Notes under the pieces: model-generated
The model's input: only the letters and a program-made list of their open reading frames with translations
Told to the model about the DNA's origin: nothing
The model's database searches: none
Shown: positions 1,832-48,265 of the stretch, one piece after another
Position numbering within the stretch: the first letter of the stretch is position 1
How the letters are laid out: each line of letters opens with the position of its first letter
Position numbers and translations under genes: made by a program
From: Escherichia phage moha
Direction: 5' to 3' (one strand)
DNA length: 64,000 nt
Sequence record: MN850590.1

Positions 1832-1862
1832 TAGACTTATCAACTACAGAGGAGTAAACAAA

Positions 1863-2132
1863 ATGACTAAAGCACGTTTCTTACGAGATACTTTAAAAGT
1901 TCTGGAAGCTGAAGCAGTTAAGTTAGTAGAAAAATATGGTGCAAAAGTTAATGGTAATGCCTTCAACAAAGTATGGATGAAAGTTGATTCTGAAGCTCGA
2001 GCTAAAGGTTATTGGGCCACTGATAAACTTGCATCATTCAAAAACAAAGATGGTTCTCCGGCATATGTCCAAGAAGGTATGCCTAATTGGCAAAATATTT
2101 TGAAAACTTACATCGAAATTGCACAGAAATAA
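1863..2132 (+). CDS. hypothetical early protein (89 aa), oriented against the late capsid genes
   Basis: ORF with GGAG Shine-Dalgarno and its own early-type promoter, sitting between genes 24 and 23. Confidence 0.6.
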   Translation: MTKARFLRDTLKVLEAEAVKLVEKYGAKVNGNAFNKVWMKVDSEARAKGYWATDKLASFKNKDGSPAYVQEGMPNWQNILKTYIEIAQK

Positions 2133-8175: not shown

Positions 8176-10158
8176 TTAGCCACCTACAGCACCAATTAGT
8201 TCGTCGAAATCGGCACCAGTTGCTGTTGCTACAAAGTTCAACGTAATATAATTTATCGAGCGGGCAGGTTGTAAGTAGAAAGTAGCTACAAATTCATTAC
8301 GGTCGATAACTGCTGGAGTGTTATTGGTAGTATCACAAACAACTTTAAAGTTATATACACCACCAAGAGCTTTAATACCCTGTAGATATTGAGAAGTCTC
8401 TGTACGGAAAGAAGAACGGGTAAATGCGTTGTTCAATTCAAACAGGCGATATTTAGATGCTGAACCAATATTCGTTTTAACCATATTGAACAAACGACGA
8501 ACGTTAATACGGTCAAATGGCGAAGGAACAGAAGTGGCAGTTTTATCACCGTACAGAACATACCCATCACCACCAGTACCAGTAACAGGGTTAATAGCTT
8601 CCTGATACAAACGATCACGCTGCGCTTGGCGAGTTTCAATTGCAAGCTTAATAACGTTAAGAATTTGTCCACGGTTATAACCGGCTGGAGACATCCAAGG
8701 CTGAGAAATATTGTCTGTACGAGCACAAAGACCAGCGATATCAGCAGCTAATGGAACCCAACGATTCACGTCATTATATTTGTCATATTGATATTTATAG
8801 TTACCGTCAATAGCAGCATAAGTAGAACTTACATTAAAGTTATTATCAGTGTAAGTTCCTGACGCAGTACGCCAATCAACCAGATTATCAACTGCACGAT
8901 TAACAGGAATACCGACTATAGTTGCACGTGGCGGTGAGCAAAGAACCAAGCAATCTTGGCGAGAATCACCAATTGCTACAACATGTTTCTGAACTGTAGA
9001 AGCAACTTCTAAAGATTCACCTGCACAAGAACCGGCAATAAACAACTGCGCATTAACAGATTCGCGGTCAGCAAACAAATCCCAAGCTTCCATTAAATCA
9101 CCAGCGTCAACCGTTTCATTAGATGATAAGCCGCCACCCAGTTTGATTACGCCAGAGAAACCTTTTGGCCAACCTTGTGCAGTAGCGAAAATATAATTGC
9201 TTGCACCTTTAGCAAAGAAATCATCAATAAAGATATTACTACCATAAATATCGCGTTCACCACGTTTAGTAGAAAGAACTACGCTCTGAACTACAGCATC
9301 GTTACGACGAACTATAATTGCATATTGGTCATCAGTTTGTGGGCCATACCCAAAGATTGCTTTAGCAGTAGATGCGCGAGTACCACCATCAGGATAAATT
9401 TTTAACTGGGCTGAAGCACCTTTGTCATAGTCTGCTTTAGATACGATTTCAATTTCGAGCTGGTCGCCAAGTTCACCAGGATAAAGAGCAACTACGCCTG
9501 GGACACCATATTTTTTAATAGATTCTTGGAAAGTTAGAGAAGTAATAGCTTCTTCAGAAGTTTCAACTTCAGTTAACAGAATACCCGAATCGGTTACGAT
9601 AGAACCAATTGTAATAACGCCAGAAAGTCCAGAAGAAGAACTGGCAACTTCGGCGGTCCAGTTAGAACCCAATGCCGGATATTCATTAATTTCTTTTGCA
9701 CGAGCAATAATTTTACCGGTTGGGATATAAATGTTAAGAATTTTACCATCGACATCAACCGAAGTGACATAACCATCTGCTTCAACAGTTTCGGTCAAAT
9801 ACTTAACGATAATTTTATCACCAACTGCATAGTTACTACCAGCAGCAGAGATTGTGAATTCAATATTGCCTGCTACAGGAGATGAGTTCTTAGCAGTATC
9901 ACGGTCAACTGCGCGTACAACACGAAGGTCATTACCATATTGAAGGAAGTTCATAGCAGACATGAAATAATCTGCTGTATCCGTATTAGGAGTACCAAAC
10001 ATATCAACTAATGCAACTTCATCAGTGATTTGTTTAATCTGGAATGCAGGTCCCCATTGGAATTTTCCAGCCAGGGCAGCAGTACCAGTGGAGTTATTAA
10101 CTACAGTACTCTGTACGGTAGTTTCTTTGAGCTCAACGCCCGGAGAGAGAAGTGACAT
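8176..10158 (-). CDS. 18: tail sheath protein gp18
   Basis: 660-aa ORF (T4 gp18 is 659 aa) in the expected position. Confidence 0.95.
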   Translation of the reverse strand: MSLLSPGVELKETTVQSTVVNNSTGTAALAGKFQWGPAFQIKQITDEVALVDMFGTPNTDTADYFMSAMNFLQYGNDLRVVRAVDRDTAKNSSPVAGNIEFTISAAGSNYAVGDKIIVKYLTETVEADGYVTSVDVDGKILNIYIPTGKIIARAKEINEYPALGSNWTAEVASSSSGLSGVITIGSIVTDSGILLTEVETSEEAITSLTFQESIKKYGVPGVVALYPGELGDQLEIEIVSKADYDKGASAQLKIYPDGGTRASTAKAIFGYGPQTDDQYAIIVRRNDAVVQSVVLSTKRGERDIYGSNIFIDDFFAKGASNYIFATAQGWPKGFSGVIKLGGGLSSNETVDAGDLMEAWDLFADRESVNAQLFIAGSCAGESLEVASTVQKHVVAIGDSRQDCLVLCSPPRATIVGIPVNRAVDNLVDWRTASGTYTDNNFNVSSTYAAIDGNYKYQYDKYNDVNRWVPLAADIAGLCARTDNISQPWMSPAGYNRGQILNVIKLAIETRQAQRDRLYQEAINPVTGTGGDGYVLYGDKTATSVPSPFDRINVRRLFNMVKTNIGSASKYRLFELNNAFTRSSFRTETSQYLQGIKALGGVYNFKVVCDTTNNTPAVIDRNEFVATFYLQPARSINYITLNFVATATGADFDELIGAVGG

Positions 10159-10185: not shown

Positions 10186-12502
<2,317 letters not shown>

Positions 12503-45492: not shown

Positions 45493-45546
45493 GTTTACTT
45501 CCTCCAAGGACTTTGATACTATACATTCATCAACTACTTGGAGGAA
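45493..45546 (+). promoter_or_regulatory. early-type promoter with a Shine-Dalgarno-sequestering inverted repeat, upstream of denV
   Basis: GTTTAC, then left arm TTCCTCCAAG (45499-45508), TG-a-TACTAT -10, and right arm CTTGGAGGAA (45537-45546) containing the GGAGG Shine-Dalgarno. Confidence 0.6.
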
Positions 45547-45549
45547 ATT

Positions 45550-45963
45550 ATGACCCGTATCAATTTAACACTTGTTTCTGAACTGACCGACCAACATCTT
45601 ATGGCTGAGTATCGTGAATTACCACGCGTATTTGGTGCAGTCCGTAAACATGTTCAAAACGGTAAACGTGTAAAGGATTTTAAAATCTCTCCAACATTTA
45701 TCTTAGGCACAGGTCACGTAACATTCTTTTACGACAAACTCGAATTTTTACGTTTACGTCAAATCGAGCTAATCGCTGAATGCTTGAAACGTGGTTTCAA
45801 AATCAAGGACACGACTGTCCAGGATATTTCCGACATTCCTGTAGAATTTCGTAATAATTATGTCCCGTCCGAAGCGTCCATTGCGATAAGTCAAGCACGC
45901 TTAGATGAAAAAATTGCTCAACGTCCGACTTGGTACAAATACTATGGTAAATCAATTTACTAA
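45550..45963 (+). CDS. denV: endonuclease V (pyrimidine dimer DNA glycosylase)
   Basis: Translation [34 protein letters not shown]... is near-identical to T4 endonuclease V; 137 aa. Confidence 0.95.
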
Positions 45964-46230: not shown

Positions 46231-46233
46231 ATT

Positions 46234-46263
46234 GTTTACGCTTAAGTATTAATATGGTATAAT
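46234..46263 (+). promoter_or_regulatory. early-type promoter (GTTTAC, 18 bp, TG-g-TATAAT)
   Basis: Near-consensus extended -10 followed by the CTATCAAAACAAA leader. Confidence 0.6.
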
Positions 46264-46294: not shown

Positions 46295-46873
46295 ATGAAA
46301 ACATATAAAGAATTTATCGCCGAGGCCTTTGCAGGAAAAGCTCAAGGCATTAATAAGGACGAGTGGAATTATCGTGGCGGAAACGGCTTTGACCCTAAAA
46401 CTGCTCCACTTGAACGATATCTAGCCACAAAGGCTTCTGATTTTAAAGCCTTCGCTTGGGAAGGACTTCGCTGGCGTAACGATTTAAATATTGAAGTTGA
46501 CGGACTTAAATTTGCTCATATTGAAGATGTTGTTGCTAGTAACTTAGACGCAGCTTTTGTTAAAGCCGACAGTGACCTTCGTCGCTGGAATTTAAAACTG
46601 TTCTCTAAACAAAAAGGCCCGAAGTTTGTGCCTAAAGCAGGTAAATGGGTTATTGATAATAAATTAGCTAAGGCTGTCAACTACGCCGGTCTTGAATTTG
46701 CCAAGCATAAATCATCATGGAAAGGTCTTGATGCAATGGCTTTCCGTAAAGAATTTGCCGATGTTATGGCTAAAGGCGGCTTTAAGGCAGAAATAGATAC
46801 CTCTAAAGGTACGTTTAAGGACGCTAATGTTCAGTATGCTTACGCCGTTGCTAATGCGGCCCGTGGTAATTAA
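46295..46873 (+). CDS. internal protein III-like protein with capsid-targeting leader (192 aa)
   Basis: Starts MKTYKEFIAEA; similar in size to T4 IPIII (194 aa). Confidence 0.65.
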   Translation: MKTYKEFIAEAFAGKAQGINKDEWNYRGGNGFDPKTAPLERYLATKASDFKAFAWEGLRWRNDLNIEVDGLKFAHIEDVVASNLDAAFVKADSDLRRWNLKLFSKQKGPKFVPKAGKWVIDNKLAKAVNYAGLEFAKHKSSWKGLDAMAFRKEFADVMAKGGFKAEIDTSKGTFKDANVQYAYAVANAARGN

Positions 46874-46875
46874 TA

Positions 46876-46897
46876 AGGCCTAAGTATAGGCCTATTT
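46876..46897 (+). terminator. hairpin, putative weak terminator
   Basis: AGGCCTA-agta-TAGGCCT followed by ATTT. Confidence 0.35.
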
Positions 46898-47051
46898 ACA
46901 TTCAAATAAAATGGGAACAACCTGGACCTCATGATTCTATGAGGGATTCCCGCCAACCTGTAATAAGGTCGAGCCCAAGTGCGGTAATGGGTAAATACAG
47001 AAATGGACAATTCATGCGCCATGGAATGGCCCAACCTAAAAGAGAAACTAA

Positions 47052-47591
47052 ATGAGAACATTTTTAACCGGTCCTTATCTATCCCTGATGAATGCTTTTA
47101 CACACCATTCTGATGCTAGAGTAGAAGAAATTTGTAAGAACGGTTATGTCCCACCATTTGAAGACGTACTCAAGCAGTACTGTACACTTCGTTTAGACGG
47201 CGGCAGACAATCAGGTAAATCAATTGCTGTGACTAACTTTGCTGCTAATTGGCTGTATGATGGCGGAACAGTTATTGTTCTTTCTAATACTTCAGCTTAT
47301 GCTAAAATTTCTGCTGGCAACATTAAAAAAGAATTTTCTCGTTATTCTAGCGATGATATTCGATTCCGTTTATTTACTGATTCTGTTCGTAGTTTTATTG
47401 GCAATGAAGGTTCTAAATTCCGTGGATTAACGCTTTCTCGTATTCTGTATATAATTGACGAGCCTATTAAAGCTCCTGATATGGATAAGATTTACAATGT
47501 CCACATTAAAACAGTACAGCACTGCTGCAAAAGCAAATATTGCATCAGCGGTAATGCTCGTCCTCAATTTTTTGTGATTGGAATGCAATGA
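47052..47591 (+). CDS. P-loop NTPase-like hypothetical protein (179 aa)
   Basis: Walker A-like GGRQSGKS and Walker B-like ILYIIDEP. Confidence 0.5.
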   Translation: MRTFLTGPYLSLMNAFTHHSDARVEEICKNGYVPPFEDVLKQYCTLRLDGGRQSGKSIAVTNFAANWLYDGGTVIVLSNTSAYAKISAGNIKKEFSRYSSDDIRFRLFTDSVRSFIGNEGSKFRGLTLSRILYIIDEPIKAPDMDKIYNVHIKTVQHCCKSKYCISGNARPQFFVIGMQ

Positions 47592-47896
47592 TGACCACTA
47601 TTGAAGTTTTTGAGTATTGTTATAACAGCCCAGTATGCAATAAAAGGGCTCTTGTAGAAAATTATGAGATTTACCATTTTAAACCTAAACGATATCGTTT
47701 GACTAAAGGTCCGTTCGCAGGGCAGCAGGTTCTTTGTACTGCTCCTAATGCACGGTTGATGACTAGTATTCCGCATTTCAAAATGGAATTTATTGATGGG
47801 CCATTTAAGGGATTAATCACTCAAAGTTTAATGGCATTTAATTCCGACCCATTTTTGATTAAAGAAAAATCTTGGATAAATTTATTTTCTAATTGA
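47588..47896 (+). CDS. hypothetical protein (102 aa)
   Basis: ORF with start overlapping the upstream stop. Confidence 0.5.
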   Translation: MMTTIEVFEYCYNSPVCNKRALVENYEIYHFKPKRYRLTKGPFAGQQVLCTAPNARLMTSIPHFKMEFIDGPFKGLITQSLMAFNSDPFLIKEKSWINLFSN

Positions 47897-47902
47897 GGTT
47901 AT

Positions 47903-48265
47903 ATGAAAGCATATCAAATTCTTGAAGGTGCACATAAAGGCACTATTTATTTTGAAGACGGTACTCAAGCCCGGATTATTGTCTCTAAGACTTTTAAAGA
48001 AGACGCTATTGTAGACCCGGAAATTTTCTACGGTTTGAATGCCCGTGAAATTGAAATTGAACATCAACCTAAAGTTAAAATTGAAGGTGGTCAACACCTG
48101 AACGTTAACGTTCTGCGTCGCGAAACTCTGGAAGATGCAGTTAAGCATCCGGAAAAATATCCGCAGCTGACCATTCGTGTATCCGGTTATGCAGTTCGCT
48201 TTAACTCTCTGACTCCGGAACAGCAGCGCGACGTTATCGCTCGTACCTTTACTGAGAGTCTATAA
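47903..48265 (+). CDS. GrcA/YfiD-like autonomous glycyl radical cofactor
   Basis: 120-aa ORF with the glycyl-radical motif RVSGYAV near the C-terminus; the C-terminal roughly 60 codons are GC-rich with host-like codon choice. Confidence 0.8.

Follow-up and report, generated by a model that had tools for sequence, protein, structure and literature searches.

The vs.8 locus of Escherichia phage moha

The stretch of DNA analysed here (the window) comprises 64,000 nucleotides of Escherichia phage moha (MN850590.1), and the elements under study are the open reading frame (ORF) at 47052-47591 and the gap that precedes it. The ORF encodes a 179-aa protein with Walker A and Walker B motifs, GGRQSGKS and ILYIIDEP, as had been described in an earlier reading made from the nucleotide letters (the sequence-only reading). 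Comparison with related genomes assigns the ORF as the Mosigvirus ortholog of the phage T4 gene vs.8, and the gap is predicted to encode a conserved structured RNA of ~120 nt. The features of the gene and its surroundings are the following.

47052-47591, plus strand: ORF with an ATG start, 179 aa; vs.8 ortholog, predicted single-domain P-loop ATPase of the ASCE (additional strand catalytic E) division
47199-47222, plus strand: Walker A motif (P-loop) GGRQSGKS, residues 50-57, with a terminase-like Arg-Gln
47442-47465, plus strand: Walker B motif ILYIIDEP, residues 131-138, with D136 and the putative catalytic E137
47040-47046, plus strand: AAGAGAA, a weak, putative Shine-Dalgarno-like sequence read from the letters, 5 nt (47047-47051) upstream of the ATG
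47588-47896, plus strand: vs.7 ortholog, 102 aa, in an ATGA overlap with the vs.8 stop
46876-46893, plus strand: terminator-like hairpin AGGCCTAAGTATAGGCCT with a T-rich tail, directly 3' of the ipIII-like stop codon, found by a terminator scan

The locus DNA is 97.5% identical to that of Mosigvirus vB_EcoM_PhAPEC2, where the RefSeq label of the gene reads 'similar to Vs.8 (NP_049732.1) from phage T4', and T4-type phages share ~90% protein identity in Vs.8 over 179 aa. The protein matched the PHROG profile phrog_1488 ('unknown function') over residues 3-179 with an E value of 1.6e-78. The place of the gene between the ip/denV genes and vs.7-vs.6 is kept in the annotated regions of PhAPEC2, T4, Melville, fGh-Ecl04, X20, PKO111 and dhabil. 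Compared with T4 (Vs.8, NP_049732), both phages have ip/denV genes upstream and vs.7 followed by vs.6/GrcA downstream, but the gene order is e - ip - denV - ip - ipIII - vs.8 here and e - ipIII - ipII - denV - vs.8 in T4. A tblastn search with the 179-aa protein retrieved 1009 phage records, with matches of nearly full length in 1007; they come from phages of Escherichia, Klebsiella, Shigella, Enterobacter, Yersinia, Salmonella, Serratia and Citrobacter.

The Vs.8 family is a narrow group of small proteins. An exhaustive profile search of 1.84 billion cluster representatives yielded 56 proteins at E<=1e-3, mostly of 150-185 aa, and found no larger family that could anchor a function. The deposited names of homologs vary among 'endoribonuclease', 'endonuclease', 'IpIII internal head protein', 'terminase large subunit' and 'P-loop NTP hydrolase'; these inconsistent GenBank names look like annotation noise, and we saw no evidence behind any of them. 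Literature searches with vs.8 and the accession numbers found nothing relevant, and a paper on RegB and denV was considered and set aside, as it concerns a different site.

The homolog search in the T4 vs region that the sequence-only reading had proposed thus led to a T4 vs.8 ortholog. Its label of 'unknown family' holds in part: the protein is a clear ortholog of a named T4 gene (phrog_1488), but vs.8 is itself uncharacterised. Since Vs.8 is without known function, the orthology is not to a characterised protein, the outcome which that reading had named as speaking against it.

The preceding ORF, which encodes an ipIII-like internal protein (phrog_5341, 3.8e-117), stops at 46873, leaving a gap of 178 nt (46874-47051) before vs.8. 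At the DNA level, no other stretch of the locus is as conserved as this gap. A promoter consensus scan of the 178 nt found no sigma-70-like site, the terminator-like hairpin being the sole signal, so the absence of a promoter cassette noted in the sequence-only reading was borne out. The stretch is promoter-less but not featureless, since a conserved pseudoknotted RNA is encoded there.

A conserved pseudoknotted RNA precedes vs.8

The predicted RNA occupies positions 46913-47030 and consists of a core, folded as an H-type pseudoknot, and a 3' module of two hairpins. Its elements are listed below; those of the core are supported by a covariance model and by covariation, and the helices were verified on the window sequence.

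46913-47000, plus strand: RNA core, predicted H-type pseudoknot
46913-46917 with 46947-46951, plus strand: helix a of the core
46922-46924 with 46998-47000, plus strand: helix b, which crosses helix a and so forms the H-type pseudoknot
46927-46932 with 46939-46944, plus strand: hairpin P2 of the core
46953-46955 with 46988-46990, plus strand: P3, enclosing P3a and P3b
46956-46959 with 46966-46969, plus strand: P3a, ACCU-GUAAUA-AGGU, with loop GUAAUA
46973-46974 with 46981-46982, plus strand: P3b, inside P3
47003-47030, plus strand: 3' module, P5 and P4, with two GGA motifs 18 nt apart
47003-47007 with 47011-47015, plus strand: hairpin P5, AUGGA/UUCAU
47018-47021 with 47027-47030, plus strand: hairpin P4, GCCA-UGGAA-UGGC

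The end of the leader (P4 and the flanking CC at 47031-47032) lies 19 nt upstream of the vs.8 AUG. T4 and the window phage are nearly identical over the 115 nt that lead up to the vs.8 ATG, and the leader is recognisably conserved even in genera whose Vs.8 proteins share 36-46% identity. A covariance model built from 13 leader copies identified a single copy in the window (46904-47034, 80.8 bits, E 2e-16), and all of the T4-like loci fetched contained copies as well.

The structure is supported by covariation statistics computed on the model alignment of 35 distinct copies, with 500 shuffles and partners slid by 1-3 columns as controls. Standard pairs occupy 93.0% of the cells, compared with 22-44% for slid partners. 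Changes on both sides of the pair were observed in 17 of the 37 pairs, a number reached by none of the 500 shuffles (8.6 +/- 1.3) and far from the 2-5 of the slid controls; the covariation score was 0.272, against 0.108 in shuffled and 0.016-0.057 in slid alignments. The covarying pairs include four of the five in pseudoknot helix b and all four in P3. An alignment made with MAFFT only, and hence not fitted to the structure, gave 93.5% paired cells as compared with 18-44% for slid partners.

The covariance-model alignment misplaces helices a and b in the short T4-class copies, and those copies were checked by hand. By this check, helices a, b, P3, P3a and P3b, and P2 where it is present, can be drawn in each of the copies of the window, T4, L028, L042, L043, rV5, an rV5-like contig, Ivi and L030. 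Helix a is built from different sequences in different copies (GGGAA/UUCCC, GGGAG/CUCCC, GGGG/CCCC, GAGGG/CCCUC and GUAG/CUAC), and so is P2 (CCUCAU/AUGAGG, CCUUAU/AUAAGG and ACAU/AUGU). Since the many G.U pairs would be A.C mismatches on the opposite strand, the structure belongs to the RNA that is sense to vs.8. RNAalifold applied to six sequences recovered parts of this structure only.

Searches of Rfam 15 gave no match at E<=1 for 6 kb and none at E<=10 for the 161-nt element, and the copy in L003 gave noise only (E 6.9). ARAGORN found no tRNA or tmRNA in the gap, and a D-arm-like reading of its GCCC...GGG segments was rejected, as the 3' segment covaries with the upstream strand of P3 in other classes. 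Literature searches with the core sequence and for T4 structured RNAs returned nothing relevant, and the core sequence was printed in no paper found.

Distribution and modularity of the RNA

The RNA precedes vs.8 in eight genera of Tevenvirinae (Tequatrovirus, Mosigvirus, Gaprivervirus, Gelderlandvirus, Karamvirus, Winklervirus, Jiaodavirus and Dhakavirus). Exact-pattern scans with the core motif identified 31 viral and 13 metagenomic contigs. The same type of scan found no copy in 185,579 bacterial and archaeal species genomes, and BLAST found none in all complete E. coli genomes.

Core and 3' module are found in different combinations. Some T4-like phages carry two tandem cores followed by a single 3' module (L021, 5049-5307; L026, 8964-9222; L048, 306-564; L025, ~190-385). 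In these tandem arrangements the first copy is without a 3' module and the second has a shortened P2; the second copy also carries a different P3b hairpin (GCC-CGC-GGC or GUC-CGC-GAC), which is itself covarying. Jiaodavirus PKO111 carries another full copy, which precedes a gene for an internal protein. In L023, an ip gene stands between a full copy and a lone 3' module directly before vs.8 (9894-9940, minus strand). Full or divergent variants of the leader were seen before internal-protein genes in PKO111 and L028 (2168-2272, minus strand), and the copy at 807-954 of L053 was grouped with those of L023 and L028 as sites of the leader at ip/vs genes. The lone module of L023 and these variants suggest that the leader is shuffled along with the other modules of the ip/vs cluster.

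The core alone (a, b and P3, with or without P2, and lacking the 3' module) was found outside the T4-like phages. In Vequintavirus rV5 (L051, DQ832317, ~2600-2700) it lies in an unannotated gap between ORF75 and the annotated promoter P74 of ORF74, ~500 bp upstream of the tRNA cluster. In the 44.9-kb phage Ivi (L052, ~2490-2590) it follows directly after the endolysin gene, and in L030, a contig related to Ivi (~1840-1990, minus strand), it also follows the endolysin gene and is itself followed by a terminator. Promoter-like sequences beside the rV5, Ivi and L030 copies were judged by eye, and none was convincing. Together, these occurrences suggest that the core behaves as a mobile RNA module among virulent coliphages, and that the 3' module is tied to gene starts. 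A riboswitch is not supported, as no single functional class of genes lies downstream: the element is followed by vs.8, by ip genes, in rV5 by ORF74 with a promoter of its own, and in L030 by a terminator. Four records labelled as Campylobacter phages (A142, A141, A140 and A13b, ~140.9 kb) match rV5-like coliphages with 97.3% identity over the query; their host label may be wrong, or they may reflect contamination.

In the 3' module, the two GGA motifs are spaced by 17-19 nt in 39 of the 41 distinct copies, P4 ends 14-22 nt upstream of the start codon in 37 of them, and the P4 loop reads xGGAA. A GGA in a hairpin loop is the consensus of CsrA binding sites, and a spacing of ~18 nt is optimal for the bridging of two GGA sites by a CsrA dimer. 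The module thus resembles CsrA-bound leaders in having two GGA motifs ~18 nt apart, one of them in a hairpin loop, and as a candidate for such a leader it combines at least two GGA motifs, one of them looped, with a bridging distance and proximity to the putative Shine-Dalgarno sequence. We regard the CsrA link of the 3' module as a lead, not a result. The autoregulatory pseudoknot of T4 gene 32 is another structured phage mRNA leader, and the RNA described here is similar to it as a pseudoknotted element 5' of a phage gene. It differs from the known structured phage leaders in being larger, with ~120 nt and six to eight helices, and in that its core also occurs away from gene starts.

Vs.8 is predicted to be a terminase-like ATPase

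Among 20 homologs of Vs.8, down to 35-38% identity, the residues D49, G50, G51, R52, Q53, S54, G55 and K56 are invariant, as are R113, R124-G125, I134, E137, P138 and the C-terminal G177 and Q179, and I135 and D136 are nearly so. GGRQSGKS conforms to the Walker A pattern GxxxxGK[ST], and ILYIIDE conforms to the Walker B pattern hhhhD followed by a Glu of the catalytic type. The description of the protein as a small stand-alone P-loop NTPase with conserved motifs is therefore confirmed over this range of homologs. In a wider set of 30 distant representatives R52 is invariant and Q53 nearly so, and the catalytic motif set is kept in all T4-like members. In a distant sub-branch (P0056, P0060, P0064 and P0065), the Walker A Lys is replaced by His and the Walker B Asp-Glu is lost while the P-loop Arg is kept; these proteins are probably catalytically dead paralogs.

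Vs.8 carries the defining sequence features of an ASCE ATPase, and its Walker B Asp-Glu together with the P-loop Arg-Gln places it on the ASCE terminase/helicase side of P-loop NTPases, so that it would work in the manner of a motor domain of this type. The motif set comprises the Arg-Gln before GKS/T, the hydrophobic strand leading to Asp-Glu, Arg113, Arg124-Gly125 and a C-terminal strand ending in G-x-Q, and it appears closest to that of the ATPase domain of large terminases (TerL) and, more loosely, to domain 1 of superfamily 1 and 2 (SF1/SF2) helicases. Profile matches were consistent with this placement: 19 of the 20 homologs matched phrog_2 (terminase large subunit; best 1e-6) over residues 45-138, from Walker A to Walker B, and 17 of the 20 matched Pfam Terminase_6N, with a best value of 6.8e-5, under the curated cutoff. 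The window protein scored 13.6 bits against Terminase_6N, for which the cutoff is 22. In an hhalign comparison, GGRQSGKS was aligned with SRQLGKT of gp17, which likewise fits the terminase link. The generic AAA_14 family was matched by 19 of the 20, and a search of PDB sequences with the Vs.8 profile gave nothing significant.

The AlphaFold2 (AF2) model of Vs.8 (predicted local distance difference test (pLDDT) 81.5, predicted template modelling score (pTM) 0.82) is an alpha/beta domain of five strands with flanking helices, in which Walker A lies between the strand 45-48 and the helix 56-69 and Walker B lies on the strand 131-137. Foldseek matches of this model in the PDB were weak (E>=1.2e-3, template modelling (TM) score 0.44-0.52) and uniformly RecA-like, the set including the RecA-like domains of SF1/SF2 helicases (DSH9, SLFN11, RecD and RadD) and the ATPase domain of the P74-26 large terminase.

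With large terminases (T4 gp17, Terminase_6N, phrog_2 and P74-26 TerL, PDB 4ZNK) Vs.8 shares the Walker A with Arg-Gln before GK(S/T), the helix and strand that come after it, the Walker B hhhhDE with its catalytic Glu, and consistent weak profile and fold matches. It differs from them in lacking both the RNase H-like nuclease domain and the lid subdomain, and it ends at residue 179, directly past the strand that would carry motif III. Vs.8 is not a member of the TerL family: its score is below threshold, it has no nuclease domain and its length is one third that of TerL. The RecA-like domain 1 of SF1/SF2 helicases (DSH9, 8JX6; RecD; RadD) provided the best Foldseek matches (TM ~0.5), with a predicted ASCE core carrying Walker A and B in common, but Vs.8 has a single RecA-like domain, with no second one to form a helicase cleft, and the E values are 1e-3 or worse.

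Vs.7 as a predicted partner of Vs.8

An overlap of 4 nt joins the end of vs.8 to the start of a gene for a recognisable Vs.7 homolog in nearly all of the lineages examined, Gelderlandvirus Melville being an exception; the translational coupling of vs.8 and vs.7 is conserved. Vs.7 has a conserved core of ~50 residues with two GPFxG motifs. Its AF2 model, which is confident (pLDDT 90.6), shows two helices followed by a small beta domain, a barrel weakly resembling KOW/SH3-like domains, and Foldseek against the PDB returned the tandem SH3/KOW domain of human KIN17, the KOW of Spt5, and NusG. The resemblance of Vs.7 to KOW and tandem SH3-like proteins (KIN17 C-terminal domain 2CKK, Spt5 and NusG) lies in the two GPFxG motifs and the small beta-barrel; the difference is that the fold matches are weak and that a search of Pfam, in a copy without PF26834, gave no match. 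PF26834 is listed for Vs.7 as a precomputed family in the protein database.

Proposed function and alternative explanations

Starting from the observed orthology, motif conservation, coupling of vs.8 and vs.7, absence of a promoter, and structure and distribution of the RNA, we propose the following explanation, to which as a whole we give an even chance. Vs.8 would bind and hydrolyse ATP through K56/S57 and D136/E137, probably as an oligomer in which one of the conserved arginines is used in trans. It would probably act together with Vs.7, made from the same message by translational coupling, with Vs.7 as the target-binding partner that may contact nucleic acid, RNA polymerase or the ribosome. 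The target of the pair may be a nucleic acid or a ribonucleoprotein, acted on at an early stage of infection. The vs.8-vs.7 message, having no promoter of its own, would begin with the ~120-nt leader or read through it, and the leader, or at least its 3' module, may set the stability or the translation of the message after transcription. The core may additionally, or instead, act in trans.

The gene vs.8 is already catalogued in T4. New in this work are the placement of Vs.8 as a terminase-like single-domain ATPase that is catalytically intact as far as its motifs indicate, the candidate Vs.8-Vs.7 module, and an orphan pseudoknotted RNA in at least three unrelated groups of coliphages, for which no Rfam family or literature match was found, together with the likely mis-annotation of vs.8 in the T4 reference. 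Vs.8 is an accessory T4 gene product kept in essentially every T4-like enterobacterial phage, and its reading as a terminase-like ATPase with a KOW-like partner makes it open to concrete experiments. The leader RNA is the bigger gain, as it is present in hundreds of sequenced coliphages from these groups and is found neither in Rfam nor in host genomes; it may control the ip/vs accessory cluster at the post-transcriptional level, or it may be a phage RNA that stands on its own, and either reading is directly testable in T4.

Several observations weigh against the proposed explanation. All terminase and helicase links of Vs.8 are below family thresholds, and the loss of K56 and of Asp-Glu in the distant sub-branch means that the fold can persist without ATPase activity. 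The KOW assignment of Vs.7 is weak, coming from Foldseek matches at E>=9e-3 and TM ~0.4, and literature searches found no biochemical or genetic data for Vs.8 or Vs.7. Single-sequence folding of the window copy gave a minimum free energy no better than that of shuffled sequences (z = 0.08), a value that is uninformative because pseudoknots are outside the folding model of the predictor. Finally, the core occurs where vs.8 is absent (in rV5, Ivi and L030, and before ip genes), and it may therefore be an independent RNA and not a leader specific to vs.8.

This last point leads to a different division of labour, which is possible and which we entertain tentatively: the core would be a phage RNA that stands alone and acts in trans (as a decoy, sponge or mimic directed against a host factor or a defence nuclease), and only the 3' module with its two GGA motifs would be a cis-acting leader of vs.8. 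Such an RNA would fit the cores without adjacent vs.8 in rV5 (where an annotated promoter follows), Ivi and L030 (where a terminator follows), the tandem cores that share one 3' module in L021, L026 and L048, and the 3' module that stands alone before vs.8 in L023. The sequence of P3a and P3b is almost identical across phage families, suggesting a sequence-specific partner, and the scanned bacterial, archaeal and E. coli genomes contain no copy. Against a purely trans-acting core stands its sense orientation, directly 5' of vs.8 or ip, in every Tevenvirinae genus examined. This division is compatible with the protein part of the explanation proposed above.

A more specific version, which we consider unlikely, holds that the core, as an RNA shared horizontally among phages, acts in trans by mimicking or titrating a host component, with the Vs.8-Vs.7 pair working with the core or controlled by it. 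P3a keeps an invariant C-U-G-U-(A/G)-A in all copies, the loops being GUAAUA, GUAAAA, GUGAAA or GUAACA, and the sequence of the hairpin is reminiscent of the anticodon loops (U33-G34-U35) of tRNA-Tyr and tRNA-His. P3a could present U-G-U-(A/G)-A in the manner of the anticodon loops of G34-U35 tRNAs (Tyr, His and relatives), and the core could serve as a decoy that diverts an enzyme or defence nuclease directed at anticodons, or as a sponge that takes up a regulator binding to RNA. If true, phage RNAs for counter-defence or host takeover would include a class that is new and that lies hidden in an annotated T4 coding sequence.

Two alternatives concern Vs.8 itself. That it belongs to the kinases of nucleotides or polynucleotides, or to the toxin-like NTPases, as suggested in the sequence-only reading, appears quite unlikely. 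As a small stand-alone P-loop protein in an accessory region it has the general profile of such enzymes, and it gave weak matches to AAA_14 and, for one member, to a PhoH-like family, which point to a generic P-loop only. Searches of Pfam, NCBIfam and PADLOC at E<=1, however, matched no kinase, toxin or defence family, yielding generic AAA and, at E 0.041, PtuA; the hhhhDE with its invariant Glu and the RecA fold matches to helicases and terminases indicate the ASCE division and not the kinase-GTPase division, and Vs.8 is universal in ~1000 genomes of virulent phages. The kinase or toxin part of that reading is thus not supported, the motifs pointing to the terminase/helicase side.

Quite improbable, too, is that Vs.8 mimics the ATPase domain of the terminase, either as a decoy or inhibitor of terminase sensors (Avs-type) or as a modulator of gp17. 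The RQxGKS/T P-loop and the consistent sub-threshold TerL matches from Walker A to Walker B agree with mimicry, as does the location in an accessory cluster with neighbours annotated as orthologs of T4 vs.4, the gene for the anti-CBASS (cyclic-oligonucleotide-based anti-phage signalling system) protein Acb2. However, when Vs.8 was compared by hhalign with the phage's own gp17 (window 10189-12024, minus strand), DGGRQSGKS...VIVLS was aligned with NLSRQLGKT...VGILA over 38 columns, in the P-loop region alone, with a probability of 14%, and the fold match to TerL has a TM of ~0.44. The catalytic residues are strictly conserved, and since a passive decoy would not need them, this conservation counts against a mimic.

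The remaining alternative takes the gap as protein-coding and bears on the annotation of T4. In the T4 reference genome (L002, NC_000866, 3754-4413, minus strand) vs.8 is annotated with 219 aa from a start ATG that falls inside P2 of the leader RNA, whereas in the window the equivalent ATG opens a separate ORF of 38 codons (46939-47055) that ends in the ATGA of vs.8. In this upstream region, indels of 1 nt and 6 nt set the window and PhAPEC2 apart from T4. Upstream of Walker A, T4 has 102 open codons and all other loci have 48-69; in other genera, non-triplet indels and double substitutions change the peptide completely while the base pairs are kept. Members of the family share a conserved N-terminus, M(R/K)xxLT, and P0010 and P0025 are called with 12-13 extra residues upstream. 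Since the frame is kept in T4 alone, the annotated length of 219 aa most likely arose as an artefact, from a frame that runs across the RNA, and the T4 reference genome at present probably lists part of the leader RNA wrongly as protein. A coding gap, either as the N-terminal 40 aa of Vs.8 in T4 (an upstream peptide MRDSRQPVIRSSPSAV...) or as the coupled 38-aa ORF, is extremely improbable: the in-frame ATG and 219-aa annotation of T4 and the overlap of the 38-codon ORF's TGA with the vs.8 ATG speak for it, but the long frame confined to T4, the indels and pair-preserving substitutions that alter the peptide elsewhere, and the homolog N-terminus at M(R/K)xxLT, with its two exceptions, speak against it.

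Neighbouring features

The terminator-like hairpin at 46876-46893 is poorly conserved among close relatives. T4 early-promoter cassettes (GTTTAC ... TATACT/TATAAT) lie at 45494-45550 and 46233-46263, before denV and the ipIII-like gene; the cassette at 45494-45550 includes a stem-loop, cctccaag/cttggagg, in contrast to the promoter-less leader of vs.8. Downstream of vs.7, the vs.6 ortholog (47903-48265) has a glycyl-radical domain as its C-terminal half (Pfam Gly_radical, 2e-18) and is annotated as a GrcA-like autonomous glycyl radical cofactor.

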